From assembly GCA_016867495.1 (NCBI GenBank), contig VGJL01000002.1, forward strand, positions 11,185 through 75,184: a stretch of 64,000 bases of DNA. Reading direction: 5' to 3'. The translations under genes were made by a program, and so were the position numbers. Below the pieces are notes generated by a model. The model worked only from the letters and a program-made list of their open reading frames with translations. It had not been told where the DNA came from and searched no databases. The DNA comes from Candidatus Eiseniibacteriota bacterium (lineage in GTDB: Bacteria; Eisenbacteria; RBG-16-71-46; CAIMUX01; VGJL01). Shown piece after piece: positions 15,218 through 47,380 of this stretch. How positions within the stretch are numbered: the stretch's first letter is position 1; each line of letters opens with the position of its first letter.

Positions 15218-15268
15218 TGAGAATTCTGTTGACCTCTCCTAACCTCACACCGTAACTATATCTTGGAT

Positions 15269-16450: not shown

Positions 16451-16454
16451 GCGA

Positions 16455-16539: not shown

Positions 16540-16743
16540 TCCCGGCATGCCCCAAGCGCGCGGCACGGATTCCGTCCTCCGAGGACCGCGATATTCTGTT
16601 TGCTCACAGTCGGTTACGGGTAAGTGTGCAGATTGTAATTTGATATTTCAACTTGTGCGGGTCCATGGGCCGAACATAGAGTAGCTGATGCCAGCCGCTC
16701 CGCTCCCGCAGGCAGGACCACGCGGCCGCGCTTCAGGAGGTAG

Positions 16744-27920: not shown

Positions 27921-28256
27921 GGTGGGCCCCCTTTCGACTGGTCTCGAGAGAGTGGCGTCTGGCCAGGAGAGGGGGGACGGCCTGGCCGGACTTGCCGGTG
28001 GGCCCTAGGGTGCGGCCTGCCTCAGCGCTTGGTGTGCGGCTGGATGCTGGGGCAACGCGCCTGCGACGGGCCTGCCTGACCTATCGGGCCCCAGGAGACC
28101 TCTCGAAACAAGTCACCCGGCATCGGCGCGATGGAATGTCGGCAGCGCCTATCTGTGGTAAATATAACTGTCATCGGGCGCCCCGTCAATCCGGCCTGCA
28201 GAATCGCTGCCGGTCGGATCGCCTTCGGGAGTCAACAGGGCGCCGGCAAGGGACAA

Positions 28257-29822
28257 GTGGCTGAAGAGGAAAGAACGCCGGATCTCGCCTCCGCGGCCGT
28301 CGCCAACGCGGTGACCGCGATCCTGCCTCGCATCTCCGGCCTCGCTGTCGCGATCTTCCTGACCCCCTTCGTGCTGGGGCACCTCGGACAGGCTCTCTAC
28401 GGCGTCCTCGTCGCGGTCGGATCCCTCTACGAGTATCTATCGGTCCTCAGGGGCGGAATGGGCGCCGCGCTGCGCCGCTACGTGACGGTCTCCTTCCACG
28501 CGGGCAAGCGCGAGCAGGCGCGCGAGTACTACGCCGCCGGCTTCTGGTGGGGGGGGGTCTTCCGGACCTTCATCTTCCTGCTGGGGCTGTCTCTCGCCGA
28601 GCCTCTCTGCCACTTCCTGAATCTGCCGGCCGAGTTCCTCCACGATGGGGCTTGGGGGGTGGCCCTGATCCTGACGGCGGCGATCATCGGGGACGCCGCC
28701 TTGATGCTCGACATCCCCATCTACGTGACGGGGCGGACGGCGCGGCTGTCAGTCCTGCGGACGTTCGCGGTCTGGTCGAAGCTGGCCATAACGGTCCTCG
28801 CCTTTCACTTCTTCGTCCCGAGCCTTCGTGTCCTCGGTGGAGCGGCAATCGTGATCGAGGCGATCCCGCTCCTGGTCATGATCTGGATGTCGCAGAAGGC
28901 GGGGACGGTGGGGGCCGCGATCCCGCGGCCGCGCTTCGGAAGGCCGGAAGTGCGCCGCGAGCTCTTCCGCTACGGGGGACTCGCGCTGCTCTCGCAGGCG
29001 GCCGCCCTGCTCTACATCTCGACCGACAATCTCCTGATCGGCCGCATCTACGGCACAGCGGCAGTGACGCACTACTCCCTCGGGGCCCGCTGGTCGCCGT
29101 TCATCCTGAGCTTTCTCGTGACCGCGGTCTATGCCCTCACTCCGCTCTTTACCCGGCTCGACGCCCAGGGGGAATCGGAGCGCAGCCGGAGCGCTCTGCT
29201 GCGGGTTGTAGGGGTGACCTCCGCGCTGGCGGTTCCGGCGTGCCTGGTTCCCTGCGTCGTGAGCGACATGTTCCTCGTCCACTGGGTCGGCCCGGAGTAC
29301 CGTCGATCGGCGGTCTACATGATCGCGATGCTCGCGCCGTCGATGCTCGATGCCGCTCTGGCGCCGATCTGGATGGCGCTGACCGCTCGCGGGCGGATCG
29401 GATGGATCACAGCGGGGGAGCTGATCGTCGCGCTCGGAAACGTGGCTCTGAGCCTCGTTCTCGCGCTCGTGTTTCATCTCGAGCTGCTCGGATTCGCTCT
29501 GGGCAACACCGCGGCGCTTCTTGCGAAGAACCTGCTCCTGCGGCCGCTCGCCAGCCGCAGGGATCCCGATGTCCCGTCGGCCCGGGAGTTCCTGGGCCCG
29601 CTGGGCAGGGCGTTCGCCGGAGGGCTCCCCGCCCTCGTGCTCTTGTACATTACGAGGGGGCTCTACGATGGCAGCCTGGCGCAGGTCGTGATCGCGGGAT
29701 TCGCCGGCGGCGCGATCTGCCTTGCGGGATCCTCCCTCGCCGCTCTGGGCCCCAAGGGAGTCCGCTCCGTGATCGACATCCTGCGCAGGGAGCTGATGAG
29801 GCGACGCCCGGCCGGCTTCTAG
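28257..29822 (+). CDS. Polysaccharide/oligosaccharide flippase (MOP/Wzx-like)
   Basis: Track ORF trimmed to the in-frame GTG at 28257. About 12-14 hydrophobic helices with Arg-rich loops, typical of Wzx/MOP flippases. The start is uncertain. Confidence 0.7.
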   Translation: MAEEERTPDLASAAVANAVTAILPRISGLAVAIFLTPFVLGHLGQALYGVLVAVGSLYEYLSVLRGGMGAALRRYVTVSFHAGKREQAREYYAAGFWWGGVFRTFIFLLGLSLAEPLCHFLNLPAEFLHDGAWGVALILTAAIIGDAALMLDIPIYVTGRTARLSVLRTFAVWSKLAITVLAFHFFVPSLRVLGGAAIVIEAIPLLVMIWMSQKAGTVGAAIPRPRFGRPEVRRELFRYGGLALLSQAAALLYISTDNLLIGRIYGTAAVTHYSLGARWSPFILSFLVTAVYALTPLFTRLDAQGESERSRSALLRVVGVTSALAVPACLVPCVVSDMFLVHWVGPEYRRSAVYMIAMLAPSMLDAALAPIWMALTARGRIGWITAGELIVALGNVALSLVLALVFHLELLGFALGNTAALLAKNLLLRPLASRRDPDVPSAREFLGPLGRAFAGGLPALVLLYITRGLYDGSLAQVVIAGFAGGAICLAGSSLAALGPKGVRSVIDILRRELMRRRPAGF

Positions 29823-29871
29823 GCTCTCCTGACTGAATCTGACAAGCCGGCATGCTTGCCGCGAGGCCGAC

Positions 29872-29945
29872 GGACCCCGACGGCTCCCCTTCGCCCCGCT
29901 ATGTTCGCGTTCGCGGCGCGGGGCTTCGGGAACCCGTCGGGGTCC
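29872..29945. terminator. Nested hairpin between the convergent flippase and GT4 genes
   Basis: Outer 12-bp stem GGACCCCGACGG (29872-29883) / CCGTCGGGGTCC (29934-29945). Inner stem GCCCCGC (29893-29899) / GCGGGGC (29918-29924). No U-tract. Confidence 0.35.
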
Positions 29946-30091
29946 CCGGACGCCCCGGGTGGAGCGCTGATGGCCCGCGCCGCTCGCGCCCTGTCACTCA
30001 GCGAGCGGAGCGGGCCGCAGCGCGACACCGAACTGGGCGGACACTCTCCAGGAGAGCGTCGCGGACGCAGCCAGCCCGCTCCCCGCCTTGC

Positions 30092-31306
30092 TCACTGAGC
30101 CTCGTCCACGTCCGCCAGTCTGATGCCGAAGGTCCGGCACAGGATCGGCAAGACCGCGGCAGAGTCGAAGCGGCGCGCCGCCTTCCGCCCGGCCTCCCCC
30201 ATCGAGCGACGCAGTTCGGGATCGGCCGCGAGACGGACCATGCACTCCATGAGGGAGGCCGCGTCGCCGGGCTCGCAGAGAAGCCCCGTGGCATCATGAG
30301 CGACGATCTCGGGAAGCGCGCGGAAGCGGGTCGCGATCACCGGGAGGCCGTGCGTCATCGCCTCGATCACGACCGCGGGGTATCCCTCCGTCGGCCAGGC
30401 CGTAGGAAGCGCGAGGATGTCGGACGAGCGGAGGACCTCGGGGATTCGCTCGTGCGCGACCTCCCCGCGATGGACAATCAGGTCCTTCATCTCAATGAGG
30501 ATCTGTCTTGCCTCCGCCAGGACGCCGTCGACCTCAGGTCCGTAGATGTCGAGGCGCGATGCGACACCGCGCGCCGAGAGCCGTTCGTGCGCGCCGCGGA
30601 ACGCCTCGATGAGAGGGAGAATCCCCTTCTCGCGCTTCACCTGGCCCAGGTAGAGGAAGCGGACCTCGCCGGCGGGCTTCTCGGCGGGCCTACCCCCGCC
30701 GGCCGCGCCGGCCGGAGCCAAGGCGACATCGAGAGGCGAGGAGCCGAGGTCGGTCCAGTTGGGGATGACGGACAGATTGGGGAACTCCTCCCGGAGAGAT
30801 CGCCTGAGCTGCTCCGTCTGGACGCCGACCGCCCGCGCGCGGCGGAAGGCAAAGCGGACCCCCGCCCTGCACGCCGGCGCGAGGGAGGAGTAGTAGACAT
30901 CGAAGCCGCCGCCCTGGACATAGATCCCGGCCTTCTTGCCGAGCAACGATGCGATGACGCTGAAGAGGGATCCTGCCGTGGCCGCGAAGCGCTGGGAGCC
31001 GTAGATCAGGATCGTGTCGCACCGACCGATCTGCTTCATGAAGGAAGCGAAGATCCCCGCGAACGGCCCCAGGACTCTCTTCGAGGCAAGGGAGTAGCCT
31101 CGCTTGCTCCCCGAAGTCGTGTTGATGACGGCGACATCAGCCGCCGCGCGCCCGCGGACGAAGCGTACGAGCGCGTCGAACGGGATGCTCGTCCCGCACT
31201 CGGGCGGTGGGCGGGGCCCGATCAGGAGGATCCGCTGGCGGCGCTGGGCGGCGGGCCGATCCTGCGCGGGTCGCGGCCCGCGGGGCGCGACGGGTGCGCC
31301 GCTCAT
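30092..31306 (-). CDS. Glycosyltransferase family 4 (GT-B)
   Basis: Trimmed to the ATG at 31306, which overlaps (ATGA) the stop of the upstream sugar transferase. C-terminal EX7E-type region LPTAWPTEGYPAVVIEAMTHGLPVIATR. Confidence 0.8.
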   Translation of the reverse strand: MSGAPVAPRGPRPAQDRPAAQRRQRILLIGPRPPPECGTSIPFDALVRFVRGRAAADVAVINTTSGSKRGYSLASKRVLGPFAGIFASFMKQIGRCDTILIYGSQRFAATAGSLFSVIASLLGKKAGIYVQGGGFDVYYSSLAPACRAGVRFAFRRARAVGVQTEQLRRSLREEFPNLSVIPNWTDLGSSPLDVALAPAGAAGGGRPAEKPAGEVRFLYLGQVKREKGILPLIEAFRGAHERLSARGVASRLDIYGPEVDGVLAEARQILIEMKDLIVHRGEVAHERIPEVLRSSDILALPTAWPTEGYPAVVIEAMTHGLPVIATRFRALPEIVAHDATGLLCEPGDAASLMECMVRLAADPELRRSMGEAGRKAARRFDSAAVLPILCRTFGIRLADVDEAQ

Positions 31307-31998
31307 GAGCCGTTCCCGTGCCCGCCGGCAGCATCCTTGCGCCGCGCGGCTTCTTCCCTTTCCCGCTGCTTCGTCTTCCAGTAGTCGATGTCGGAGATCT
31401 GATCCGCTCCGCTCAACAACAGGGGGGCCGTCCGGAGGATGATCGAGAGATCCATCCAGAGGCTGAGGCGCGCGACGTACTCGAGATCGAGCCGGATCCG
31501 CTCGGGCCAACGGATCGCCCCGCGCCCCTTGATCTGCGCCCAGCCGGTGATCCCCGGGCGCACGAGGAGACGGCCTTTCTGCTCTTCGTCGTACTGCTCC
31601 ACCTGGTAGCGGAGTCCGGGGCGCGGGCCCACGACGCTCATGTCGCCCCGGATGACGTTGAGGACTTGCGCCAGCTCATCGAGGCTCAGCCGGCGGAGGA
31701 CGCGGCCGACCCGGGTGATCCGCGAGTCGCCCTTCTCGACGAGGATTCCGGCTCCCTTCGTCTCCGCTCCGGGGACCATCGAACGGAACTTGAGGAGGTC
31801 GAAGGGCCGTCCCCCGCGGCCGATCCGCTCCTGGCGATAGAGGACGGGACCGCCGTCCTCGATCTTGATGAGGCAGGAGATCAAGAGCATGAGCGGGCCG
31901 GCGAGGATCAGGGCGAAGGCGGCGATGACGAGATCGAGAGGCCGCTTGCCGAAGCGCGCGTAGAAGCCCGCCGGGGGAGAGCCTGGCGAGGGTCTCAT
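31303..31998 (-). CDS. Undecaprenyl-phosphate sugar phosphotransferase (small PglC/WbaP-C-terminal type)
   Basis: 231 aa from the ATG at 31998: KRPLDLVIAAFALILAGPLMLL...LKFRSM...DELAQVLNVIRGDMSVVGPRP...RPGITGWAQI. ATGA overlap with the LarA-like stop. Confidence 0.9.
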   Translation of the reverse strand: MRPSPGSPPAGFYARFGKRPLDLVIAAFALILAGPLMLLISCLIKIEDGGPVLYRQERIGRGGRPFDLLKFRSMVPGAETKGAGILVEKGDSRITRVGRVLRRLSLDELAQVLNVIRGDMSVVGPRPGLRYQVEQYDEEQKGRLLVRPGITGWAQIKGRGAIRWPERIRLDLEYVARLSLWMDLSIILRTAPLLLSGADQISDIDYWKTKQREREEAARRKDAAGGHGNGS

Positions 31999-33269
31999 CC
32001 CTCCTCCCTCCCCGGCGCTCCCGCCGGTATCGAGAGGGGCGCCGACGGGATCACGGTCATCCTCCCGCCCCGGGGATGACGCTCCTCGAGATAGGCGAGG
32101 ACCTCCTCCCACCGGCGCGCGTGGGGATAGCCGGTCCAGAACGAACGCCGCACGTCCAGGGTCGAGAGGGCGGGCGCAAAGACGATCAGTCCGCGCCCCT
32201 CGAGATAGGGACGGGGCCCCGGCTGCCGGTAGAGGCGCATGCCCGGGCCGTGGAGGCTGTGGTGGCCGACGCCCGCGCCGCACGCGGCGGCTATGATCAC
32301 AGTTCCGCCTTCGCGCGCGAGGGGCGAATCGCTCGCGCGGTAGGCGTTGAAGGCGTTTCCCGCCTGGAGAAGCTCTCCGTCCTTCGGATAGGCGTTCAAG
32401 AGAACCGCGTCGGCGCGGGGGATGATCTCCGTCCTGAGCGCGCGGCGCGCGAAGTCGACCGCCGCGCGATGGGCTTTGATGGGATGGCCGTAGAAGTGGC
32501 CGAGGGGCTGCCGGCGGGATCCGGGAACGATGTTCACCACAGCCTGGAGTCCCGCCTGGATCGCGATCTCCTCGATCTCGGCGCGCGCCTGATTCCCCTC
32601 GATGACGCAGACGCCCGCGCCGGAAAGGCCGGTCACGGCGGGCCTGTGGTTCATCTCGAGCGTCTCGATCCCCGCGAGGCCGGGCAGGACGATCTTGCAT
32701 CCGCCGCCGAAGCCGGCATAAGGATGCGGCATCACCGATCCGACCGCGATCTTGAGATCCCGCTCCAGGAAGGTCCTGTTGATTCGAACGGGGATGCCGC
32801 GGCGGGATCGGCCCAGATCGACCAGCTCCTCGTACGGATGGTGGTTCACGACCTCGCACGAGGCGAGCGCGCGCTCGCCGAGCTTCGCGCGCAGTTCCGG
32901 GAGACGGAGGGGAGCATGCGCTCCGATTGCGACGATCACGGCGACCCGCTCGGGAGGAATCCCGGCGGCGTCGAGCCGGTCGAGGATCGCCTCGATCGCC
33001 GGCCCGGCCGCGGAGGGCCGCGTGATGTCCTCGACCGCGATCGCTGCGCTCCCGCATCCCCGCGCGAGCCGCTCGAGCGGCGGAGCCTCGATCGGGCTAT
33101 CGAGCGCTTCTTCCAGGGTGGGCCCGGGCGCCGCGCCCCCGGCATCGGAAGGAAGCTCGCCCGCGAGCTTGGCGATGTCGCATCTCCAGCCGGCTGGAAC
33201 TGGCAGCTCGAGATCGCTCTCCTCCGCCCACGCTCCCCAGGGAATCCGGATCGAATCAGGCGCGGGCAT
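31995..33269 (-). CDS. LarA-like (DUF2088) nickel-pincer-cofactor-dependent racemase/epimerase homolog
   Basis: 424 aa. Contains VAIGAHAP, GSVMPHPYAGFGGGCKIVLPG and LEMNH, which by eye correspond to the LarA His/His-Lys/His catalytic and cofactor-binding motifs. Confidence 0.7.
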   Translation of the reverse strand: MPAPDSIRIPWGAWAEESDLELPVPAGWRCDIAKLAGELPSDAGGAAPGPTLEEALDSPIEAPPLERLARGCGSAAIAVEDITRPSAAGPAIEAILDRLDAAGIPPERVAVIVAIGAHAPLRLPELRAKLGERALASCEVVNHHPYEELVDLGRSRRGIPVRINRTFLERDLKIAVGSVMPHPYAGFGGGCKIVLPGLAGIETLEMNHRPAVTGLSGAGVCVIEGNQARAEIEEIAIQAGLQAVVNIVPGSRRQPLGHFYGHPIKAHRAAVDFARRALRTEIIPRADAVLLNAYPKDGELLQAGNAFNAYRASDSPLAREGGTVIIAAACGAGVGHHSLHGPGMRLYRQPGPRPYLEGRGLIVFAPALSTLDVRRSFWTGYPHARRWEEVLAYLEERHPRGGRMTVIPSAPLSIPAGAPGREEG

Positions 33270-33316
33270 CCGGTCTCAGCTCCGCGCGGCTTCGATCGAC
33301 GCTGTCCTGAACGATC

Positions 33317-33994
33317 TCAGACCGCGGCATCCTTCTTCCCCACGCGCCCCACGATCCTCGCGGGGACGCCGAAGGCGATGGCCCCCGCTTCCAGATCCTC
33401 CAGGAGGACCGACCCGGCTCCGAGCTGCCCCTCGGCGCCGATCGACCGGCCCGGGAGGACCGATCCGTTCATGCCCACGAAGGCCGCTTCGCCCAGTCGG
33501 ACGTTTCCGCCGACGTTCGCGCCGGGTCCGACGGTCGCGAAGGGTTCGAGCACGCAGTCGTGCCCGACCGTCGCGTTGAGGTTCACGAGCGTGTGTTCGC
33601 CGAGGCGCGTGGAGGCTGCGATCGTGGCTCCCGCGCCGACAACCGCCCCGGGCGAGATCGTGATGCCCCCATACAGCGTCGCCCGCGGATGGACGGCGAT
33701 GGCGAAGACCGCTCCCAGCTCGGCGAGGCGTAGGGCGACCTCGCGGCGGGCCTTTGGTTCCCCCACCCCGATCAGGAAGCGATGGCCTTCGCGAATGAAG
33801 TCGCCCGCGACCCGCACGCTGCCGTAGACCTTCAGCCCCGCGGGCTCTGCATCCCGGCGGGACGGATCATCGTCGAGGAATCCGACCACCGTGCAGGGGA
33901 ATCCTCCCGCCTCGGCGGCCGCGCGCAGGATCTCCAGGATCCCGCGGCCGTGACCGCCGGAGCCGACGATGACGATCGGTCCCGGGCCGCTCAT
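33317..33994 (-). CDS. NeuD/PglD-family sugar N-acyltransferase (left-handed beta-helix)
   Basis: 225 aa from the ATG at 33994 (ATGA overlap with the upstream stop). IVIVGSGGHGRGILEIL N-terminal Rossmann-like part plus hexapeptide repeats (...VGAGATIAASTRLGEHTLVNLNATVGHDCVLEPFATVGPGANVGGNVRLGE...). Confidence 0.85.
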   Translation of the reverse strand: MSGPGPIVIVGSGGHGRGILEILRAAAEAGGFPCTVVGFLDDDPSRRDAEPAGLKVYGSVRVAGDFIREGHRFLIGVGEPKARREVALRLAELGAVFAIAVHPRATLYGGITISPGAVVGAGATIAASTRLGEHTLVNLNATVGHDCVLEPFATVGPGANVGGNVRLGEAAFVGMNGSVLPGRSIGAEGQLGAGSVLLEDLEAGAIAFGVPARIVGRVGKKDAAV

Positions 33995-35412
33995 GATCTC
34001 CCGCCCGCCTTCCTCTCGACGAAGCGGATCAGCAGATCGAGCGTTTCGAAGTTCTCGCCGACGACGTCCTCGTCGCCGATCTCGATCGAGAAGGTCGCCT
34101 CGAGGTCCGAGATGAGGCGGATCATGCGAAGCGAGCCGAGGCCAAGGTCGCGGAGCGGGCGGGCCCCGTCGACCTTGAGATCGAGCGCCCGTCCCAGCGT
34201 CTCTCCCACGATCTTCATGACTCCTTGCGCGAGGCCGCTCCCCTCGAGCGCGACCCGGATCTCCTCCGCGCGCAGGTGGCAGGCGCGCACGGTCTCGACG
34301 ACCGCGTCGAGCGTGGACTCCTCCATGTGCGAGAAGAGGGGCAGGCAGAGGATCTCCGAGAGGAGCAGCTCGGTCCCCGGGAACGGCCCCTGTCCTTCGA
34401 AGAGGTGCGTGAACCGTGTCTGCCTGTGCAGGGGAGGGGCGAAGTAGATCTTCGATTGGATCCCCTGCTTCTTGAGCGCGTCCTGCGTCTCGACGTTCGT
34501 GAGGCCGAAGCGCTCGGGATTGAGCCGGACGGCGAAGTAGTTGTAGGTCGTGCGGCAGCGCGGATCGATCGCTTGAAAGCGGCACCCGGGCAGATCTCGC
34601 AATCCCGCGCGATAGCGCTCGACGAGCGCGTGACGGCGCGCGATCGCCTGCTCGGTCATCTCGAGGCTGAGCGAGGCCAGGAGGCTGTGGAGCTCGCTCA
34701 GGCGAGCGTTCATGCCCGCGAGGCGGCAGTCGTAGTCGCCCGGGTTTCCGTATTCGCGCGCGACGCGAAGCTCGGCGGCCAGGGCGCGATCGTTCGTCGC
34801 GACGAGTCCTCCTTCGCCCGCGACGGTCACCTTCGTGGGGGCGAGGCTGAAGATCTCGGCCCGACCGAAGTTGCCCGCCATGGTGTCTCCCCACCGGGTT
34901 CCCATCGCGTGCGCCGCGTCGCTGTAGACGGCGAGATCGGCCCGCGCGAGGAGGGGGCGCAGAGAGTCCCAGTCCGGGCTGTTTCCGAAGATGTAGACGG
35001 GAACGAGCGCGCTCCCTCCATGCGCCAGCGCCGCGACGGCAGAGGCCGGATCGAGGTTGAAGGTGTCCGGATCGCAGTCGATCAACCTCGGACGCAGGCC
35101 GTTCCAGAGCAGCGCGTGGAGCGTCGCGGGGAATGTGAATGTGGGCAGGCAGGCCTCTCCGGTCAGCCCCAGGACCTTGGGAAGCAGCACGAGGCCGGAT
35201 GTCGCGCTCGCCATCGCGACGACCTCGCTGCATCCGAGGTAGGCGGCTGCGCGGGCCTCCAGCTCGCGGACCCATCTGCCGTTCGTGATCATGCGAGAGG
35301 CGAAGATCTTCTCCAGGTGACCGGCGTAGACCTCGTAGGGAGGGAGAGTCGGCTGGCTGACCGGGATCGTCGTCTCGGGAACCGGCCCGCCCAGTATCGC
35401 TAGCTTGTCCAA
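33991..35412 (-). CDS. DegT/DnrJ/EryC1 sugar aminotransferase fused to a C-terminal acyl carrier protein domain
   Basis: 473 aa. PLP-Lys motif FSLAPTKVTVAGEGG. The last ~80 aa ...ARPLRDLGLGSLRMIRLISDLEATFSIEIGDEDV...FETLDLLIRFVE match the PP-binding (DLGxDSL-type) pattern. Confidence 0.8.
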   Translation of the reverse strand: MDKLAILGGPVPETTIPVSQPTLPPYEVYAGHLEKIFASRMITNGRWVRELEARAAAYLGCSEVVAMASATSGLVLLPKVLGLTGEACLPTFTFPATLHALLWNGLRPRLIDCDPDTFNLDPASAVAALAHGGSALVPVYIFGNSPDWDSLRPLLARADLAVYSDAAHAMGTRWGDTMAGNFGRAEIFSLAPTKVTVAGEGGLVATNDRALAAELRVAREYGNPGDYDCRLAGMNARLSELHSLLASLSLEMTEQAIARRHALVERYRAGLRDLPGCRFQAIDPRCRTTYNYFAVRLNPERFGLTNVETQDALKKQGIQSKIYFAPPLHRQTRFTHLFEGQGPFPGTELLLSEILCLPLFSHMEESTLDAVVETVRACHLRAEEIRVALEGSGLAQGVMKIVGETLGRALDLKVDGARPLRDLGLGSLRMIRLISDLEATFSIEIGDEDVVGENFETLDLLIRFVERKAGGRS

Positions 35413-35428
35413 GTCGTCCCTCCTCCGG

Positions 35429-36997
35429 CTATGCCCGCGCGTTCCAATCGTCCTTCAGCTTCTGCTTCTGGATCTTGCCCGACTCGTTCTTCGGAAGTTC
35501 GGCGCGGATCGAGAAGGCCGCCGGGATCTTGTACTCGGGGAGGCGGGAAGAGGCGAAATCCTTGAGGGCCGCCTCGGTCGCGCTGTGCCCCTCCCGCAGG
35601 ACGACGAAGGCGAGGATCGCCTCGCCCAGGATCTCATCGGGAATCCCGATCACCGCGGCTTCGTGGATCTCGGGATGCTCCATCAGAACCTCCTCGACTT
35701 CCTTCGGACTGATGCGGTGCGCGCCGCACTTGATCATCTCCCGCTTCCGCCCGACGACGTAGAGGAATCCCTCCTCGTCCCTACGCCCGAGATCTCCGGT
35801 GTGGAACCCCTCGGGTCCGAGCACGCGGCGGGTCTCCTCGAGATCTCCCCAGTATCCCGCCATGATGTTCGAGCCGCGAGCGACCAGCTCGCCCGTCTCG
35901 CCGACATCGGCCTCGGTCGCGTCCTCGCGGAGGACGCGCATCTCGACATTGGGGATCGCGCGCCCGATCGACCCGACCTTTCGCGGAAGATCGGCGGGCG
36001 GAAGGTAGGTGAGTCGCGCCCCGGCCTCGGTCGCCCCGTACATGATGTAGATCGTCACGCCCGGGAGGGCCTCCATCAGTCGCCGGATCAGCTCCGGCGC
36101 CATGGCTCCTCCCGCCTGGGTGATGTAGCGGAGGGATGGCGGGGTGTCGGCGGCGAGACGGGATCGGTTCATGAGGAGCGCGAACGTCGAGGGGACGCCG
36201 GAGATCCCTGTCGCGCCATCCTTCTTCATCCTGTCTACAACGCTGTTCGGGAACAGGAGATCGCTGCCGACAATCAGCGAGCCGCCCGCCCACGCGTGCG
36301 TGTTGAGCAGCGACTTCCCATAGACGTAGTAGAAGGGGAGGATGACGAGGATGCGGTCCTCGCTCGTCAGGCGGAGGTAGGTGACGATCGAACGGACATT
36401 GGAGACGAGATTCAGATGGGTGAGCATCGCGCCGCGAGGTTGCCCCGTCGAGCCCGAGGTGTAGATGATCGATGCGAGGTCGATGTCGACGGCGGGGCAC
36501 GGCGGGGCGGAGGCGCCCGATTCCGCCTCGAGAGCGGCGGGCAGAGGAATCGGCTCGATGTGCGCCGGTATGGCGCCGAACGCCCCTGGGTCCCTCGTGA
36601 TCAGGTGCCGGAGATCGGGCGTTCTCGCAAGGGCCGGGGTGGTCACCTCGGCGAAGCGCGGCTGCGTCACGAGGGCGCGCACGCGACAGTTGTCGAGGAT
36701 GAAGTCGAGGCCCCGCGCGTCGAGGGACGTGTTGATCGGAACCGCCGCGGCGCCGGCCTTGAGCGTGCCGTAATAGGAGAGAACGTAGTCGAGCGAGTTC
36801 TCCGCGAGGATTCCGATCCGGTCTCCGCGCCGGATGCGGAGGCGCCGGAGGCATCGCGCGAATCGGTTCGCTTGATCCTCCGCTTCTCCGTAGGTGACGA
36901 TCCGATCCGGAAAGCGGAGGAACGGGCTCTCGGGCGCGCGCTCCGCGCTTCGCTCGAGGACTTCGTGCAGGAGAACCGGTTCGCCGGGAATGGCCAA
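35429..36997 (-). CDS. AMP-dependent synthetase/ligase (acyl-CoA/acyl-ACP ligase type adenylating enzyme)
   Basis: 522 aa. IIYTSGSTGQPRGAML (AMP-binding motif), YGATE, GDLGRRDEEGFLYVVGRKREMIK and a C-terminal ...PKNESGKIQK. Confidence 0.9.
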   Translation of the reverse strand: MAIPGEPVLLHEVLERSAERAPESPFLRFPDRIVTYGEAEDQANRFARCLRRLRIRRGDRIGILAENSLDYVLSYYGTLKAGAAAVPINTSLDARGLDFILDNCRVRALVTQPRFAEVTTPALARTPDLRHLITRDPGAFGAIPAHIEPIPLPAALEAESGASAPPCPAVDIDLASIIYTSGSTGQPRGAMLTHLNLVSNVRSIVTYLRLTSEDRILVILPFYYVYGKSLLNTHAWAGGSLIVGSDLLFPNSVVDRMKKDGATGISGVPSTFALLMNRSRLAADTPPSLRYITQAGGAMAPELIRRLMEALPGVTIYIMYGATEAGARLTYLPPADLPRKVGSIGRAIPNVEMRVLREDATEADVGETGELVARGSNIMAGYWGDLEETRRVLGPEGFHTGDLGRRDEEGFLYVVGRKREMIKCGAHRISPKEVEEVLMEHPEIHEAAVIGIPDEILGEAILAFVVLREGHSATEAALKDFASSRLPEYKIPAAFSIRAELPKNESGKIQKQKLKDDWNARA

Positions 36998-37136
36998 CTC
37001 CTTCCTGTTCGGGCGCTTGCCTCGCTGCGAGGCGGGCGGCCGAGCACACTACTATAGTATCGACCCTGCCGCAGTGCTGCTTGAGAACGAAGCCGCCGCA
37101 ACTCTTTTCATCTGTTGGGATTCCGGACACGTGACC

Positions 37137-37811
37137 ATGGAGCCGGCGGCCGCGGAGCGATCGAAACTCCTTGCCAGGCTCTCCGCATCGCCCACAATGA
37201 TCGCGCGGATCTGGCGGCGAAGAAGGGGCCCTGCCTCTCGAAGACCGATGGACGCGATCGAAACCTGGAACGACGCGCAACTCGTCGCGGCGGTCGGCGG
37301 CGGAAGCACGCAGGCCGAGGCCGAGGTCTGCGTCCGCTATCGGGCGAGGATCCGCCGCAAAGTGGATGCCTCGCTCCGCGGCAGCCCCGACGCCGAGGAT
37401 CTCACGTCCGAGATCCTGCAGGCGACGATCGAGTCGCTGAGGCGCGGGAGCTTCCGGGGCGAGTGCCAGCTCGGGACCTTCGTCCACGCGGTCTCCAGGA
37501 ACAAGATCGCCGAGTACATCCGCCGCCGCAGGCCGGAGTCGGTGGAGCTGACGGAGGACGTCCCCGATCATCGGATTTCGCCCGAGGAGGAGGTTATCCG
37601 AGGGGAGATCGCCGACGCCGTGCGCAAGGCGGTCGGGGAGCTCAAGCCGAAGTACCGTAACGTGTTATATCTGTACTACTTCCGAGGTCTGAGCATCGCC
37701 GAGATCGCAGCCCGTTTGGGGGCTCCGGGCCGGCGCGTCAGCGAGTGGAAGGACTATGGGCTCAAGATGATCCGTTCCAAGGCGGGACCGTCGCTACTTC
37801 GATTCCGGTAA
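37137..37811 (+). CDS. ECF (sigma-70 family) sigma factor, divergent from the glycan operon
   Basis: Real gene inside track ORF 36894..37811. Region 2 (EDLTSEILQATIESL...FVHAVSRNKIAEYIRRR) and region 4 (LKPKYRNVLYLYYFRGLSIAEIAARLG). The start is ATG 37137 or 37248. Confidence 0.8.
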   Translation: MEPAAAERSKLLARLSASPTMIARIWRRRRGPASRRPMDAIETWNDAQLVAAVGGGSTQAEAEVCVRYRARIRRKVDASLRGSPDAEDLTSEILQATIESLRRGSFRGECQLGTFVHAVSRNKIAEYIRRRRPESVELTEDVPDHRISPEEEVIRGEIADAVRKAVGELKPKYRNVLYLYYFRGLSIAEIAARLGAPGRRVSEWKDYGLKMIRSKAGPSLLRFR

Positions 37812-37835
37812 CCGCCTCTCCGGTGCAACCAACAT

Positions 37836-38660
37836 GTGGGGACGAAGGCCATGGACTGCGAATCGGTCCGGAAAGGAAGGCTTGCGGAGCGGTATCGGGA
37901 GGGGCATCTCTCTCCCGAGGAAGCGGAGGAGTACGAGCGCCACTACTTTTCCTGCGACCGCTGCTTTCAGGATCTGAGGTTGGAGGATCTGGTCGCCGAG
38001 CGGATCAGTGCGGAGGGGGAGGCCCTCTTCGCCGAGGAGATCGTTGCAGAGTCTGCCGTTGGATCGCGCGGCGCGGCTCCGGTCTCCGGGACGATTCCCG
38101 CGCGACGCCGTCCCCTCATCGATCTCAGGAAGTGGTGGTCCTCTCTTGCCCGCCCCGCCTGGGCAGGCGGCCTGGTCGCGGCGACGGCCGTCGCCGTCAT
38201 CGCGATCGTCAGCATGATGAGCATGAATCGCGACGCCGCTCTCAAGAGATGCTGGACTCCATCCGCGCACCCCTACATCGCCTCCGAGTTGCGGGGAGCC
38301 GAGGAGATCGACGAGTTTCGGCAGGGGATGGAGTCTTACGCGGCCGGCCGCTACAAGGAGGCTGCGGACCGGCTGTCCCGCAGCGCCGAAGTTGACCCGC
38401 GCGACGCGGACATCCACTTCTACAGGGGGGTCGCCCTCCTCATGTCCGGAAGACCCCGCGCCGCGCGGGAGGCTCTCCAGACCGCGTCCGGTCTCGTTCC
38501 CGCCTCCGAGCTTTACCGCTGGTATCTCGCGCAGGCGCAGCTCATGAGCGGCGAGGTCGCGAAGGCCGAAGAGAGCTTGCGGCCGCTCGCCGCCGGCGAC
38601 GAGTACGCGGTGCGGGCGAGAGCGCTGCTCGACAGGATCGCGGAGGTCAGGAGGGACTAG
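37836..38660 (+). CDS. Putative anti-sigma factor (zf-HC2-like) with a TM segment and C-terminal TPR-like domain
   Basis: N-terminal ...YERHYFSCDRCFQDL. TM segment WAGGLVAATAVAVIAIVSMM. C-terminal helical repeats (YAAGRYKEAADRLSRSAEVDP...). Confidence 0.55.
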   Translation: MGTKAMDCESVRKGRLAERYREGHLSPEEAEEYERHYFSCDRCFQDLRLEDLVAERISAEGEALFAEEIVAESAVGSRGAAPVSGTIPARRRPLIDLRKWWSSLARPAWAGGLVAATAVAVIAIVSMMSMNRDAALKRCWTPSAHPYIASELRGAEEIDEFRQGMESYAAGRYKEAADRLSRSAEVDPRDADIHFYRGVALLMSGRPRAAREALQTASGLVPASELYRWYLAQAQLMSGEVAKAEESLRPLAAGDEYAVRARALLDRIAEVRRD

Positions 38661-41959: not shown

Positions 41960-42768
41960 TGAGCAAGACCAGCGATCTGCGCCTCCTCATCGTGGATGAC
42001 GAGGAGCCGGCCCGGCTGCTGCTGCGGGACTATCTGCGCGGCGCGCCCGGCGTGACGATCGTGGGGGAGTGCGCGGACGGTTTCGCGGCGGTCAAGGCGG
42101 TCACGGACCTCGATCCCGACCTCCTCCTGCTCGACATCCAGATGCCCAAGCTCGACGGATTAGAAGTCCTCGAGCTGATCGGGCGTGAGATCGCGGTCGT
42201 CTTCGTCACGGCCTATGACGAGTACTCGATCCGGGCCTTCGAGATCCACGCGGTCGACTATCTGCTGAAGCCCTACTCGCGCGAGCGGCTCCTCGAGGCG
42301 CTCGATCGGGCCCGCGAGAGGGTTGCGCGGCTCGGCCCGCGCCGGAAGGGAGCGCCGGCGTCGCAAGCCGCCGCCACCGCCGGCGCCGGGAGCGCGACTC
42401 TGCCCGAGACGGTCGCCGCCATGGACATGCGCCGCTCGAGGCGGCCGCTCGAACGGATCCTCATCCGAGACAGAGCGCGCATCCATGTGATCCCGGTCGG
42501 CTCGATCCACTACGTGGAGGCGCAGGACGACTACATCTCCATCGTGACCAAGGACAGGAAGCTCCTCAAGCAGCAGACCCTGAACGAACTGGGGCAGGCG
42601 CTGGACGAGAGGCGCTTCGTCCGCGTTCATAGATCGTTCCTGCTCAACATCGAGCATCTGGCGAGGATCGAGACTTACGCGAAGGACTCGAGGATCGCGA
42701 TCCTGAAGAGCGGCGCCCAGCTCCCGGTCAGCCGGAGCGGATACGAGAGGCTGCGGGGGTTGCTGTGA
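41956..42768 (+). CDS. LytTR-family response regulator
   Basis: ATG 41956 overlaps the kinase stop. Receiver domain LRLLIVDDEEPAR...LLLLDIQMPKLDG, then a C-terminal LytTR domain (IHYVEAQDDYISIVTKDRKLLKQQTLNELG...FVRVHRSFLLN). Confidence 0.9.
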   Translation: MMSKTSDLRLLIVDDEEPARLLLRDYLRGAPGVTIVGECADGFAAVKAVTDLDPDLLLLDIQMPKLDGLEVLELIGREIAVVFVTAYDEYSIRAFEIHAVDYLLKPYSRERLLEALDRARERVARLGPRRKGAPASQAAATAGAGSATLPETVAAMDMRRSRRPLERILIRDRARIHVIPVGSIHYVEAQDDYISIVTKDRKLLKQQTLNELGQALDERRFVRVHRSFLLNIEHLARIETYAKDSRIAILKSGAQLPVSRSGYERLRGLL

Positions 42769-44611
42769 CGCCTTCGACTTCCGCTCCAGTCCTCGGGCGG
42801 TTCCTTCCACGCTCCTGCAGCGAGGGCGTGGATTCCGGCGATTGCCGCCCAAACAGCTCAGCGTAGAGGCCGCCTTGCCCGATCAGCTCCGAGTGGGTGC
42901 CTTCCTCGACGATCCGGCCTCTCTCCATGACGAGGATGCGATCGGCGTCGACGACGGTGGAGAGCCTGTGCGAGATCATGATCGTCGTTCTCCCGGCCAT
43001 CAGCGCGTCCATCGACCGCTTGACATGAGCTTCCGACTCCGCGTCCAGCGACGAGGTCGCCTCGTCGAAGATGACGATCGGCGGGTCTTTCAGGATCGCC
43101 CGCGCGATCGACAGTCTCTGCCTCTGCCCCCCGCTTAGGCAGGCGCCGCGCTCGCCGACGATGGTGTCGTACCCGCGGGGGAGCTCGCGAATGAACTCGT
43201 CGGCTTGGGCGAGGCGCGCCGCCCGCTCGATCTCCTCCGGGCCGGCGTCGGGATTCGCGATCCGCAGATTGTCGGCGACGCTGGCGTGGAAGAGAAAGGT
43301 CTCCTGGGGGACGACGCCGATCCTGAGGCGCAGATCATCGAGCGAGAGATCGCGCAGGTCATGCCCGTCCAGGAGGATCCTCCCCTTCTCGACGTCGTAG
43401 AGCCGGCAGATGAGATGCCCGACGGTGCTCTTCCCTGCGCCGCTCGCGCCGACGATGGCGACCTTTTCTCCCGGCGCGATCGCGATGTCGACGTCTTCCA
43501 GGATCAGCGGGCCGCCGTTCCCCCCGTAGCGGAAGCGGACGCTCTCGAAGACGATCTCCCCGCGTGTTCGGCCCGGGTGAACGGGCGTCGGGCTCTCGCT
43601 GACGCTCGGCTCGAGGTCGAGGAAGGCCAGAATCCTCTCGACCGCGCCCACTGCCGTCCGGAGTTGGACGTTGAGGAAGCTCAGGCGTTGGGCCGGCTCG
43701 TACATCCGTGTCAGGTAGCTGATGAATGCCACGAGCGTGCCGATCGTCATGGTCCCGGCTATGGACGCCCGGCCGCCATACAGGTAGATGAGAGCAGGCC
43801 CGACGGCGACGACGAAGAGGCCGAGCAGCCTCGATTGCGAGCCGAGGACTCCCATGCGGACGCTCGTGCGGGCATGGGCGCGCAACCTCCGCGCGAACGA
43901 CTCCCCTCTTGCCGCCTCGTTCGTGAAGGCCTTGATCTCGCGTATCCCCGCGATCCCCTCCTGCAGCTCCTCGACGACCTCGCCGTAGCGGACCCGATTC
44001 TCGCGTGCAGCGGCGAGAAGGCGGCGGTCATGGAAGCGGAAAATCGCGAGCAGCAAGAGCAAGGTGGCCGCGCCGATCAGAGTCATCGGGAGGCTCATCG
44101 CCGCCATGAAGCCGAGCATGAGGAGGATCGTGAAGGAATCGGTCACGAGCATGAGAAAGGCGCTTGTCGTCAAGGCCTGGACGGCATCGACGTCACCCAT
44201 GACCCGCGCCGTCATCTGCCCCGACTTGGTTCCGTCGAAGTGATCCGTCGACAGGCGCAGGAGGCAGTCGTGCATCCGTCTGCGAAGAGTGAGGACGACC
44301 CCGGCGCTCACCCGCAGGAAGAGGACGTCGGTGGCGAACATGCAGAGCATGTAGCCCGCGTGGATCGCGGCCATCGCGCTGACGATGCGGAGCAGCATGG
44401 CGCCGTCCCGCTCGGGCAGGGCCGCATCGAAGATCTGGCGCACGAGCAACGGGATCGTGAGGGAGGCGGCTGTTCCGATTCCCATGAAGGCCAGGCAGCC
44501 GAGCTGCTCCCTCCAGTACGGCTTCAGATAGCCGGCAAGGCGCAGGAGGCTTGTGCGCGTGCGGGGCGCCCCCTGCGGGAATGTCCCGGTCCCTGGGGTC
44601 AGCATGATCAT
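42728..44611 (-). CDS. ABC exporter, fused TMD-NBD (MsbA/type I exporter-like), no C39 peptidase domain
   Basis: Trimmed to the ATG at 44611 (ATGA overlap with the upstream gene). Six-TM domain, Walker A GASGAGKST, signature LSGGQRQRL, Walker B IVIFDEATS. Its 3' end overlaps the convergent response regulator by 41 nt. Confidence 0.9.
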   Translation of the reverse strand: MIMLTPGTGTFPQGAPRTRTSLLRLAGYLKPYWREQLGCLAFMGIGTAASLTIPLLVRQIFDAALPERDGAMLLRIVSAMAAIHAGYMLCMFATDVLFLRVSAGVVLTLRRRMHDCLLRLSTDHFDGTKSGQMTARVMGDVDAVQALTTSAFLMLVTDSFTILLMLGFMAAMSLPMTLIGAATLLLLLAIFRFHDRRLLAAARENRVRYGEVVEELQEGIAGIREIKAFTNEAARGESFARRLRAHARTSVRMGVLGSQSRLLGLFVVAVGPALIYLYGGRASIAGTMTIGTLVAFISYLTRMYEPAQRLSFLNVQLRTAVGAVERILAFLDLEPSVSESPTPVHPGRTRGEIVFESVRFRYGGNGGPLILEDVDIAIAPGEKVAIVGASGAGKSTVGHLICRLYDVEKGRILLDGHDLRDLSLDDLRLRIGVVPQETFLFHASVADNLRIANPDAGPEEIERAARLAQADEFIRELPRGYDTIVGERGACLSGGQRQRLSIARAILKDPPIVIFDEATSSLDAESEAHVKRSMDALMAGRTTIMISHRLSTVVDADRILVMERGRIVEEGTHSELIGQGGLYAELFGRQSPESTPSLQERGRNRPRTGAEVEGVTATPAASRIRSG

Positions 44612-45597: not shown

Positions 45598-45668
45598 CGG
45601 GACCTCCCTGAAAGATGCGGGCCGTTACGGGCCTCGCTGGGGCGTCATGACATCCTCCCGATCGGAAC

Positions 45669-45701
45669 TGGCCTGGGCCGCCCGCTCGCTGACCCAGGCC
45701 A
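45669..45701 (-). promoter_or_regulatory. 9-bp-stem hairpin between the peptide gene and the peptidase gene (attenuator/processing-site candidate)
   Basis: TGGCCTGGG (45669-45677), a 15-nt loop, then CCCAGGCCA (45693-45701). It lies 23 nt downstream of the peptide stop on the minus strand. Confidence 0.4.
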
Positions 45702-45723
45702 GACCGATCGCTCGGATGGGCTT

Positions 45724-45837
45724 CTAGAACGGATCGGCGATCAGCCGGGGCCAGCAGTTCGGCCAGCAGTAGTAGCACGGCAGGCAGATGTGCGCCCTTC
45801 CCTGCACCTGGCCGGAGACCTTCTTCAGCTCGAGCAT
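45724..45837 (-). CDS. 37-aa Cys/Trp/Tyr-rich candidate RiPP precursor peptide (not in the ORF track)
   Basis: Manual translation: MLELKKVSGQVQGRAHICLPCYYCWPNCWPRLIADPF*. GGAGG lies 8 nt upstream of the ATG (45837). 35 of 37 sense codons end in G/C, matching the local coding bias. It lies between a radical SAM/SPASM gene and a peptidase/ABC exporter pair on the same strand. Confidence 0.6.
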   Translation of the reverse strand: MLELKKVSGQVQGRAHICLPCYYCWPNCWPRLIADPF

Positions 45838-45915
45838 TCCTCTCACCTCCTGTCCTTTGGGATTCTCAGGCGCCCCGCAACGATCGACCAGGCGCCGCCC
45901 GGCGGGAGCCCCGGC

Positions 45916-47220: not shown

Positions 47221-47380
47221 GAGCTGGACCTCCTCCGACCTTGGTTCACCCCGGGTGAGCCCCTCTCGGCTCCATCGGGTCTTCCCGGGCATCCCCTTGG
47301 TTGCGCCCCGTTCGTGGATATTGAGAAGGGGTCTCGATCGAAAGACGGCCCGCGAGGCAGCGGATGCCCGGACCGCCTGG

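Follow-up and report, generated by a model that had tools for sequence, protein, structure and literature searches.

A fused aminotransferase–acyl carrier protein in a predicted operon for an N-acylated 4-amino sugar

The Pgl pathway of Campylobacter jejuni, which leads to UDP-diNAc-bacillosamine, uses the dehydratase PglF, the aminotransferase PglE, the N-acetyltransferase PglD and the transferase PglC. To our knowledge, the characterised PglD/NeuD-type enzymes take CoA thioesters as donors. LpxA and LpxD are left-handed β-helix acyltransferases that transfer an acyl group from acyl-ACP (acyl carrier protein) to a UDP-sugar, and in Vibrio cholerae O1 the rfbKLMNO genes probably supply the ACP, ligase and acyltransferase that give perosamine its tetronate N-acyl group. 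In Flavobacterium psychrophilum, whose O-polysaccharide contains Qui2NAc4NR, the PglD homologue WfpG is predicted in PMC6519341 to use the ACP of the locus, WfpD.

The window analysed here is a stretch of 64,000 nucleotides, in which six minus-strand genes (30092–36997), judging by their content, form one operon; it would build the lipid-linked sugar with which a surface polysaccharide starts. The order is ligase, aminotransferase–ACP, PglD-like protein, LarA homologue, PglC-like protein and GT4 (Table 1). A gap of 16 nt separates the ligase gene from the aminotransferase–ACP gene, the end of which shares an ATGA (33994–33991) with the ATG start of the PglD-like gene; a second ATGA joins the stop of the LarA-homologue gene to the start of the PglC-like gene. 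The gene identities and junctions claimed in a first-pass annotation, made from the sequence alone, agree with the Pfam and NCBIfam matches and the ORF boundaries: in Pfam, the ligase matches PF00501 (E = 2.5e-80) and PF13193 (E = 3.7e-22), and the PglC-like protein PF02397 (E = 9e-64). The PglD-like protein has PglD_N and Hexapep matches, scores 176.7 bits against TIGR03570 (NeuD/PglB/VioB; cut-off 160.8) and has a histidine, His145 (TVGHDC), that is invariant in six aligned homologues. The LarA-family gene between the acyltransferase and PglC-like genes was absent from that annotation. The host of this surface-sugar cluster is an uncultured lake bacterium.

Table 1. Features of the operon and the neighbouring flippase gene
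Feature	Position	Strand	Profiles and landmarks
ANL-superfamily adenylating ligase, 522 aa, TTG start	35429..36997	-	PF00501, PF13193
Aminotransferase–ACP fusion, 473 aa, single ORF	33991..35412	-	PF01041 + PF00550
DegT/PglE-type sugar 4-aminotransferase domain (predicted), residues 1–376	34285..35412	-	PF01041; K194 at 34831–34833
Helical connector and ACP (PP-binding) domain, residues 377–473	33991..34284	-	PF00550; Ser427 at 34132–34134, stop at 33991–33993
NeuD/PglD-type left-handed β-helix N-acyltransferase, 225 aa	33317..33994	-	TIGR03570, PglD_N, Hexapep
LarA-family (nickel-pincer-nucleotide) 2-hydroxyacid racemase/epimerase homologue, 424 aa	31995..33269	-	PF09861
Small PglC-type polyprenyl-phosphate sugar-phosphate transferase, 231 aa	31303..31998	-	PF02397
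GT4 glycosyltransferase, start uncertain	30092..31300	-	PF00534, PF13692
MOP/Wzx-type polysaccharide flippase candidate, 563 aa	28131..29822	+	PF13440, PF01943, PF01554

The same annotation had noted the lack of a 4,6-dehydratase in the window; indeed, no PglF-like dehydratase lies within it, and none of the nine PF02719 matches in the genome falls on the window's contig. The genome search that it proposed for a dehydratase and a PPTase recovered both: a PglF-like dehydratase on contig C1 (361.8 bits) and a single PPTase gene.

The aminotransferase–ACP fusion is genuine and an assembly artefact is excluded. Both PF01041 (residues 32–376, E = 5e-76) and PF00550 (residues 398–464, 30.5 bits against a cut-off of 20.8) exceed their Pfam cut-offs within the one polypeptide, where the annotation had suggested looking for them, and the C-terminal region, in which it had called for a PP-binding profile and a modifiable serine, also carries the predicted carrier serine, Ser427 (DLGLGSLRMI). 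A frameshift or stop splitting the genes, which would have undone the claim, is contradicted by contigs from other samples that span the junction without gaps: a contig from run X8 is identical across 33404–34187, and contigs from run X11 (a different habitat, ∼96% identity) align gap-free over 33710–34097 and 34103–34311. The fusion is rare and lineage-restricted, and ten protein clusters have the full-length form. Two related loci encode the ACP separately: L070, of the same class, has a 379-aa aminotransferase followed by an 80-aa ACP (4-nt overlap), PglD, a LarA homologue and PglC, and L068 has the aminotransferase followed by ACP, ligase and PglD. As relatives have a separate 80-aa ACP gene directly behind the aminotransferase gene, the fusion came about through the joining of two neighbouring genes. 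On the aminotransferase tree the fused state has changed at least twice (by gain or loss) and is thus dispensable. Our literature searches retrieved no paper describing an aminotransferase–ACP fusion of this type, which appears to be undescribed so far; this much of the novelty first proposed stands, but an ACP-fed PglD homologue had already been predicted, in the F. psychrophilum work (PMC6519341).

What the sequences establish directly is which domains are present, that two of them are fused, how gene order is shared between loci, and that the genome has genes for the cofactor and a PPTase; every enzymatic step of the pathway and the identity of its acid are inferred. We think it rather probable that the PglD-like enzyme N-acylates a 4-amino sugar of the bacillosamine type, and that the acyl group, probably that of a 2-hydroxy acid, is one that the ligase has loaded onto the fused ACP. 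The PglF-type dehydratase encoded on contig C1 would generate a UDP-4-keto-6-deoxy-HexNAc, which the DegT-type domain would aminate at C4; the ANL ligase would adenylate a carboxylic acid and pass it, as a thioester, to the phosphopantetheine on Ser427; and the PglD/NeuD-type acyltransferase would move the acyl group to the new 4-amino group. The fused carrier would thereby place acyl donor and amine acceptor together, and the LarA homologue may set the configuration of the acid before or after its attachment. The PglC-type enzyme would then transfer the sugar phosphate to the polyprenyl phosphate carrier, for extension by GT4 and export by the flippase. Delivery of the N-acyl group by ligase and ACP, as the first-pass annotation had it, is the best-supported reading of the genes: in related loci of two phyla, the aminotransferase and PglD-like genes are again accompanied by genes for a ligase and an ACP.

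One related locus (L072) retains the whole gene order at 57–71% identity, including syntenic GT4 (57%) and flippase (68%) genes. All eight of the Acidobacteriota loci examined have contiguous LarA-homologue, PglC and PglD genes. Three of them encode the aminotransferase, ligase (52–58% identity), stand-alone ACP, PglD, PglC and LarA homologue; an ACP is found in six, with none in the fetched stretch of the other two, and tblastn found no ligase in five. The LarA homologue is thus bound more tightly to PglC and PglD than to the carrier. The two loci without a nearby ACP would fit a different role for the ligase and ACP, in which they act like DltA and DltC and activate a small acid or amino acid with which the finished polymer, or another acceptor, is decorated later at O or N; the PglD-like enzyme would use acetyl-CoA, as the canonical bacillosamine pathway does. 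Ligase-to-carrier loading for the decoration of surface polymers is an established pattern in D-alanylation, and the weak NCBIfam hits of the ACP include carriers from other pathways, for example AmcB and AsbD. We nevertheless regard this role as unlikely: the window operon encodes neither a DltB/MBOAT-type membrane acyltransferase nor any other acceptor enzyme, the ACP gene adjoins the aminotransferase or PglD-like gene in L070, L068, L069 and L097–L099, and in the window the ACP is fused to the amine-making enzyme.

The LarA-family gene is the most conserved and the most unusual member of the module. Its product (PF09861, E = 8e-44) falls under all NCBIfam cut-offs; the top match is malate racemase LarAH6 (216 bits, cut-off 500), a further malate racemase family, Mar1/LarAH5, gives 203 bits (cut-off 462), and the closest solved structure is that of malate racemase Mar2 (PDB entry 6D6Z). 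It has the Lar_N domain in common with Mar1/LarAH5 and Mar2/LarAH6, as well as equivalents of the two catalytic histidines, the NPN-binding lysine and histidine, and Arg75; Arg84, His118, His182, Lys192 and His208 are invariant in 26 orthologues. The NPN biosynthesis genes for LarB, LarC and LarE are present in the genome. It differs from the malate racemases in its C-terminal 90 residues, which align with no solved member except, weakly and below threshold, at their extreme end, and in its polysaccharide-synthesis setting; the main text of PMC11770544 nowhere uses polysaccharide, glycosyl, aminotransferase or acyl carrier as a term. Pro-Tyr stands at the first two of the four specificity positions named in that paper, after the catalytic histidine, compared with Phe-Phe in LarA and Tyr-Lys in Mar2.

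This signature, a conserved GxGxHSLHGPGMRLYR motif, the scores below all equivalog cut-offs and the company of PglC and PglD in all eight Acidobacteriota loci, with or without a ligase or ACP, are also what would be expected if the LarA homologue were unconnected with the acyl group. It would then epimerise, during the PglD/PglC step, a hydroxyl of the sugar or of a sugar acid, and the LarA family would gain a new class of substrate. We find such an activity improbable, as the characterised LarA-family enzymes covered by PMC11770544 all act on 2-hydroxy acids and in L069 the place of the LarA homologue is taken by a citramalate synthase, a maker of a 2-hydroxy acid (TIGR00977, 598 bits against a cut-off of 450). 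This is the sole copy in that genome; its gene shares 4 nt at the 3' end with the NeuD-like gene, and next come genes for a ligase and an ACP. For the favoured acylation with a 2-hydroxy acid, the citramalate synthase of L069, the malate racemases, to which the LarA homologue is closest among characterised proteins, and the oxalate- and malonate-CoA ligases among the solved relatives of the ligase (below) hint at a hydroxy-dicarboxylic acid, perhaps of C4 or C5 and malate-like. N-malyl amino sugars and a 2-hydroxyglutaryl-bacillosamine are known from bacterial polysaccharides according to PMC3210612.

The top NCBIfam match of the ligase is TIGR03098 (acyl-CoA ligase, AMP-forming, exosortase A system-associated), over the full length but with 421 bits against a cut-off of 592, so that it is not a member of this family, although it is the best match to it within the genome. 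The genome does have an exosortase next to a polysaccharide export locus, but on another contig than the ligase. Among solved structures, the closest full-length ones are those of oxalate-CoA ligase (5IE0) and malonyl-CoA synthetase (4FUQ). Counting against the favoured pathway, the ligase orthologue of G040 (54% identity) lies on a separate contig from the ACP locus. All of the named NCBIfam families that resemble the ligase are CoA ligases, and it might therefore make an acyl-CoA without loading the ACP. The ACP domain would then be a structural remnant or docking module that carries no acyl group, the donor being the CoA thioester. The gain or loss of the fusion at least twice, already described, would agree with this, as would the replacement of the carrier serine by glutamate in two of the ten fused homologues (P0009 and P0011) and the AlphaFold2 model (mean pLDDT 95.1, pTM 0.86), in which helix 382–406 continues out of the aminotransferase domain into the connector as a high-confidence joint in place of a flexible linker. 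Ser427 is at the N-terminus of helix 427–441 in the same model. We give this explanation little credence: the window protein and seven other fused homologues keep the serine in the motif DLGLGSL(R/K)MI, it is invariant in the stand-alone ACPs at the syntenic position in related loci (29–33% identity to the fused domain; 32–34% for those of L070 and L068), and the domain exceeds the PF00550 cut-off.

The predicted substrate of the aminotransferase is a sugar, on the evidence of structure and gene neighbourhood. The best Foldseek match of the domain is DesI (2PO3; TM score 0.91, 34% identity), with ArnB next; PseC and the other named families are more distant than DesI, and the domain scores under every equivalog cut-off. 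The PLP lysine, Lys194 (APTKVTV), is invariant in 49 aligned relatives. Relatives at 40–43% identity are joined to PglF-type dehydratases, and five of the six longer relatives found are PglF-dehydratase–aminotransferase fusions. Orthologues adjoin PglC in nine of 11 loci of the host's own phylum, and L071 has the classic arrangement of PglF-like protein, hexapeptide transferase and aminotransferase. Amination of an ACP-tethered keto-acyl group, with later transfer of the amino-acyl unit, is very improbable: aminotransferase–carrier fusions are known from PKS/NRPS lines, but the aminotransferase domains there are of another fold class, the nearest structures here are NDP-sugar 4-aminotransferases, relatives are joined to PglF dehydratases, and the orthologues in L063–L066 (59–61% identity) lie next to PglC without an ACP.

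Compared with the Pgl pathway of C. jejuni, the same four enzyme types are found, with the aminotransferase, PglD/NeuD-type and PglC-type enzymes in one operon; the dehydratase is unlinked, the ANL ligase, ACP domain and LarA homologue are additional, and an acyl donor other than acetyl-CoA is probable. LpxA and LpxD, towards which the PglD-like protein has weak NCBIfam hits, are of another subfamily and draw on the fatty-acid ACP for long 3-hydroxyacyl chains. V. cholerae O1 resembles the present locus in its ligase, dedicated ACP and hexapeptide acyltransferase, which probably serve to place a hydroxy acid on the amino group of a 4-amino sugar, but its ACP is separate, the sugar is GDP-linked and there is no LarA homologue. 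In F. psychrophilum, as here, an N-acyl group is predicted to reach a UDP-4-amino-bacillosamine-type sugar from a locus-specific ACP; there, as described in PMC6519341, a 3,5-dihydroxyhexanoyl group is built on a separate ACP by ketoacyl-ACP synthases and a reductase, whereas here a ready-made acid is predicted to be loaded by the ligase onto an ACP fused to the aminotransferase, in the company of a LarA homologue.

The 473-residue protein that the first-pass annotation read as a DegT-type sugar aminotransferase joined to an acyl carrier protein (ACP) does hold both domains in a single polypeptide, each above its Pfam cut-off: PF01041 matches residues 32–376 (256.7 bits against a cut-off of 19.8; E = 5e-76) and PF00550 matches residues 398–464 (30.5 bits against a gathering cut-off of 20.8). 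The PLP-binding lysine, K194, is invariant in alignments of 18 and of 49 sequences. An AlphaFold2 model made from the 49-sequence alignment has a mean pLDDT of 95.1 and a pTM of 0.86; in it, helix 382–406 starts where the aminotransferase domain ends and continues into the carrier, and Ser427 is predicted to lie at the N-terminus of helix 427–441 (helix II), the canonical place of the phosphopantetheine serine. This modifiable serine is invariant between the fused domain and five stand-alone ACPs, and is found in a GS rather than the usual DS motif. It is kept in eight of the ten fused homologues and is a glutamate in representatives P0009 and P0011. These two proteins, both fused and 60–61% identical, read GLGEI and GIGEV at the site. 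One phosphopantetheinyl transferase (PPTase) gene, matching PF01648, was found in G000, the genome of the window. Public contigs are in agreement with the fusion. A public run that is possibly the source of the window covers the whole stretch without a difference; a second lake run (X8) gives a 784-base contig identical over 33404–34187; and a hot-spring run (X11) gives contigs about 96% alike over 33710–34097 and 34103–34311, which bridge the aminotransferase–ACP and ACP–PglD junctions, the contigs of both X8 and X11 being gap-free over the compared parts. Contigs of X11 and of a further run, X12, match parts of the window. The aminotransferase–ACP fusion is confirmed.

The reading of ORFs and junctions places the fusion gene in a compact minus-strand operon that runs from the ligase to a GT4 glycosyltransferase, and every gene call in it is backed by Pfam. 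Against NCBIfam only the acyltransferase clears a cut-off (TIGR03570); the other operon proteins fall below the named equivalog cut-offs. A promoter and terminator scan of 29500–37600 returned one promoter-like and one terminator-like site, neither above shuffled controls. The Pfam scan also showed an ECF-type sigma factor and a TPR protein (36894–38660, plus strand) divergent from the ligase gene, which may be regulators of the operon. Elsewhere in the window, the same scan found a radical SAM/SPASM enzyme (45916–47292) and an ABC exporter (42728–44815) within 42728–47292, and two adjoining paralogous ATPase genes (AAA_14 and DUF4143) at 15263–17946.

Genes of the operon and the divergent flippase candidate, in order from the ligase
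Feature	Position	Strand	Remarks
ANL ligase	35429–36997	−	522 aa, TTG start; 16-nt gap to aminotransferase–ACP gene
Aminotransferase–ACP fusion	33991–35412	−	473 aa; ATGA overlap with PglD-like gene
PglD-like acyltransferase	33317–33994	−	225 aa; 47-nt gap to LarA-family gene
LarA-family gene	31995–33269	−	424 aa; ATGA overlap with PglC-like gene
PglC-like transferase	31303–31998	−	231 aa
GT4 glycosyltransferase	30092 to ~31300	−	Pfam
Wzx-type flippase candidate	28131–29822	+ (divergent)	Pfam

Surveys show the fusion to be rare and confined to one lineage. Among the best 120 of 353 homologues (E ≤ 1e-10, from 8,000 scored candidates), ten clusters of 473–484 aa cover 98–100% of the fusion query at 60–100% identity, and nine of these ten have PF00550 in their precomputed annotation. 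An orthologue at E ≤ 1e-60 is present in 12 of 206 genomes of the window's phylum, G000 included, and the match reaches through the carrier domain only in G000 and G016; close homologues from a genome of the same order bear the label Candidatus Eisenbacteria. From the carrier side, a profile of five ACPs had 13,941 matches at E ≤ 1e-3 among 1.84 billion representative proteins; a Pfam scan of 21 proteins of 260–739 aa from the best 150 of these found a DegT domain only in P0006, the representative of the window's own clade. Proteins of 829–2365 aa gave six matches at E ≤ 1e-20, five of which are fusions of a PglF dehydratase to the aminotransferase, and PF00550 is absent from all six. In the ESM Atlas, which was covered for clusters of at least 50 members, the PP-binding family appears in none of the matches listed (eight by features and seven by structure). 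An alignment-based scan of metagenome contigs returned eight loci, the top one at 38% identity, and no close relative; a scan of genome contigs turned up a single one, L021, on the same contig as L072, the locus that keeps the whole gene order of the window. No paper on a DegT–ACP fusion was found in the literature searched.

The origin of the fusion is explained by loci in which a separate ACP gene directly follows that of the aminotransferase. In L070, from the same class, a 379-aa aminotransferase overlaps by 4 nt an 80-aa ACP gene, which is followed by PglD, a LarA homologue and PglC; in L068, from the same order, the aminotransferase is followed by ACP, ligase and PglD. The fused carrier domain is 32–34% identical to these two ACPs, with the serine invariant. 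When 42 aminotransferase domains were placed in a maximum-likelihood tree, the distribution of the ten fused forms required two state changes in 200 of 200 bootstrap trees, indicating that both fusion and separation have happened.

For the sugar side, a model-based structure search gave as best match the NDP-sugar 4-aminotransferase DesI (2PO3; TM 0.91, r.m.s.d. 2.3, 34% identity), and ArnB, also an NDP-sugar 4-aminotransferase, matched with a TM of 0.94. The domain fits no named NCBIfam enzyme (DesI, PseC, ArnB, WecE and others, all below cut-off), its top match being TIGR04427 (DesI) with 232 bits against a cut-off of 650. Of 11 loci retrieved from the phylum, nine have a PglC-type gene adjoining the aminotransferase orthologue, and locus L071 has the classic order of PglF-like enzyme, hexapeptide transferase and aminotransferase. 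The dehydratase–aminotransferase fusions, read as Rosetta stones, support a PglF-type dehydratase as the source of the substrate for this clade. As the first-pass annotation had said, the window has no such dehydratase, nor does the whole of its contig; a search of the genome located a PglF-like match on another G000 contig, C1 (361.8 bits), in a 991-aa protein (L080:8620–11595, minus strand) with CoA_binding_3, Polysacc_synt_2 and a C-terminal Bac_transf (sugar-phosphate transferase) domain. This gene adjoins Wza-like, Wzz/tyrosine-kinase-like and exosortase (EpsH) genes. The PglC-like protein of the operon has a single PF02397 (Bac_transf) domain (214.7 bits, residues 18–194 of 231). The PglD-like protein scores 176.7 bits against TIGR03570 (NeuD/PglB/VioB; cut-off 160.8) and contains PF17836 and PF00132; its His145 is invariant in six homologues, and we take it to be the candidate catalytic histidine of the β-helix domain, assuming the role that the histidine has in PglD. 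A complex prediction with three PglD-like copies and the ACP domain gave a score of 0.00 and a mark of 0.32, and thus no answer.

The first-pass annotation overlooked the gene that separates PglD from PglC. Its 424-aa product is a LarA homologue (Lar_N, PF09861; 149.7 bits against a cut-off of 23.3), and its closest solved structure is the malate racemase Mar2 (E = 1.6e-37; profile E = 9.5e-57). The closest NCBIfam models are also malate racemases, LarAH6 (216 against 500 bits) and LarAH5 (203 against 462 bits), and both equivalog cut-offs are missed. Residues R84, H118, H182, K192 and H208 align with R75, H108, H174, K184 and H200 of LarA1, which comprise Arg75, two catalytic histidines, the lysine that tethers the NPN cofactor and a nickel-binding histidine (PMC11770544), and all five are invariant in 26 orthologues. 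The genes for making the NPN cofactor are found in G000 above cut-offs (LarC, 383.6; LarB, 274 summed; LarE, 330.6 bits). A second, more distant Lar_N homologue occurs in the same genome (C92:5564–5992, 79 bits), with a weak LarB/PurE-like match about 2 kb away. The two specificity positions that follow the catalytic histidine are Pro-Tyr. A malate racemase is expected to have H/Q and K where LarA1 has W358 and T359; residues 331–390 of the homologue do not align to solved LarAs, either as a single sequence or as a 26-sequence profile, and the equivalents of these two positions are therefore unmappable. The scores far below cut-off, the Pro-Tyr pair and the two unmappable positions count against a plain malate racemase. 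The subfamily is large, with 119 listed clusters beside the window protein at 46–72% identity, many of them from Acidobacteriota or Eisenbacteria MAGs. No paper on LarA homologues in glycan loci was found in the literature searched; the main text of PMC11770544 does not contain polysaccharide, glycosyl, aminotransferase or acyl carrier, and that of PMC13524815 does not contain DUF362, DUF2088, polysaccharide or aminotransferase, and a supplementary tree or table of either might place the subfamily.

Among 401 sampled genomes of Acidobacteriota (the phylum of genome G206), eight have an orthologue of the LarA homologue at E ≤ 1e-90. The genes for the LarA homologue, PglC and PglD are contiguous in all eight loci. 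A carrier was detected with the ACP HMM in six of the eight stretches (none in L094 and L096), and three loci (L097–L099) add a DegT aminotransferase from a different clade, a ligase 52–58% identical to that of the window and a stand-alone ACP; tblastn did not find the ligase in the other five. By these counts PglC and PglD are closer companions of the LarA homologue than the carrier is. Upstream in L095 there are genes for an asparagine-synthase-like protein, an 86-aa ACP, a DUF362 protein and a GT4, and no ANL ligase; the asparagine-synthase-like amidotransferase is nearest to TIGR03108 (XrtA/PEP-CTERM amidotransferase), below its cut-off. The AsnB-like/ACP/DUF362 set (L095:4434–8045, plus strand; also L093:4385–6418) lies upstream of GT4, the LarA homologue, PglC and PglD. 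A distinct LarA subfamily that accompanies PglC, PglD and ACP in two phyla is a more interesting lead than the fusion.

Three independent but weak pointers suggest that the acid is a small 2-hydroxy-dicarboxylic acid. The first is the likeness of the LarA homologue to malate racemases. The second is the kinship of the ligase, an ANL enzyme (PF00501, 270.6 bits; PF13193, 79.5 bits; both above cut-offs), to oxalate-CoA ligase and malonyl-CoA synthetase, its nearest full-length solved relatives (E about 1e-64); malonyl-CoA synthase also appears in its NCBIfam match list. The third is L069, a locus of genome G041 with no LarA homologue, in which a citramalate synthase (TIGR00977, 598 bits against a cut-off of 450; 12480–14213, plus strand) is encoded inside the polysaccharide operon, its 3' end overlapping the gene for a NeuD-type acyltransferase by 4 nt, with ligase and ACP genes after that. 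We considered whether it is a mere housekeeping enzyme of isoleucine/leucine synthesis and judge this less likely, since it is the only TIGR00977/LeuA-type match in G041 and no match at E ≤ 1e-20 was found in the related G000 and G040 (100% and 97% complete). Apart from these pointers, the ligase scores below the cut-off of TIGR03098, the exosortase-A-associated ligase (421.4 against 592.35 bits), and in G040 an unlinked ligase orthologue has, at a distance of about 1.3 kb, a gene for a lactate/malate dehydrogenase (L079:12090–13046, minus strand), which may be a coincidence. Sugars of the kind suggested are known: D- or L-malyl groups attached via C4 occur on amino sugars of Vibrio vulnificus, Pseudoalteromonas rubra and Shewanella algae, and 4-N-(2-hydroxyglutar-5-yl)-bacillosamine occurs in Flexibacter maritimus (PMC3210612). 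Because these sugars have a free 2-hydroxy-1-carboxylate end, the acid could be a substrate for a LarA-type enzyme either ahead of its attachment or once it is attached.

The antigenicity of bacterial surfaces is shaped by unusual N-acyl groups, such as malyl, 2-hydroxyglutaryl and hydroxybutyryl, that amino sugars carry, and no genetic route to dicarboxylic hydroxy-acid decorations was found in the papers that could be searched. We put forward, as a speculative and rather doubtful proposal, that a LarA-family nickel-pincer enzyme is a core, cross-phylum part of bacillosamine-type sugar synthesis, and that the LarA homologue, PglC, PglD and ACP, together with an ANL ligase or an AsnB-like enzyme, might form a so-far-unknown genetic route to N-(malyl, 2-hydroxyglutaryl or citramalyl) amino sugars; the LarA homologue would fix the configuration of the 2-hydroxy-dicarboxylic acyl group, and the acid would ride on a dedicated carrier, here joined to the aminotransferase so that amine and acyl donor arise on one protein. 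In the locus and its relatives the genes open to testing are few: those for the ligase, the carrier, the PglD-type transferase and either a LarA homologue or a citramalate synthase. They also place a LarA subfamily, uncharacterised as far as we found, in the context of polysaccharide synthesis, in genomes of uncultured Eisenbacteria-like bacteria and Acidobacteriota.

The scheme for the window is like the Pgl bacillosamine pathway with the acyl donor exchanged. For that donor the nearest precedent is the O-polysaccharide locus of F. psychrophilum, where 3,5-dihydroxyhexanoyl is predicted to pass from the ACP WfpD to the PglD homologue WfpG (PMC6519341). The first-pass claim of an ACP-delivered N-acyl group has a precedent for its core idea, and in the window is reasonable but unproven. 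As a Rosetta-stone link, the fusion ties the carrier to the amino-sugar step and supports the ACP-dependent N-acylation by PglD-type enzymes that has so far only been predicted. Three features are new: an acid loaded by a ligase, a carrier covalently fused to the aminotransferase, and the presence of a LarA homologue or a citramalate synthase.
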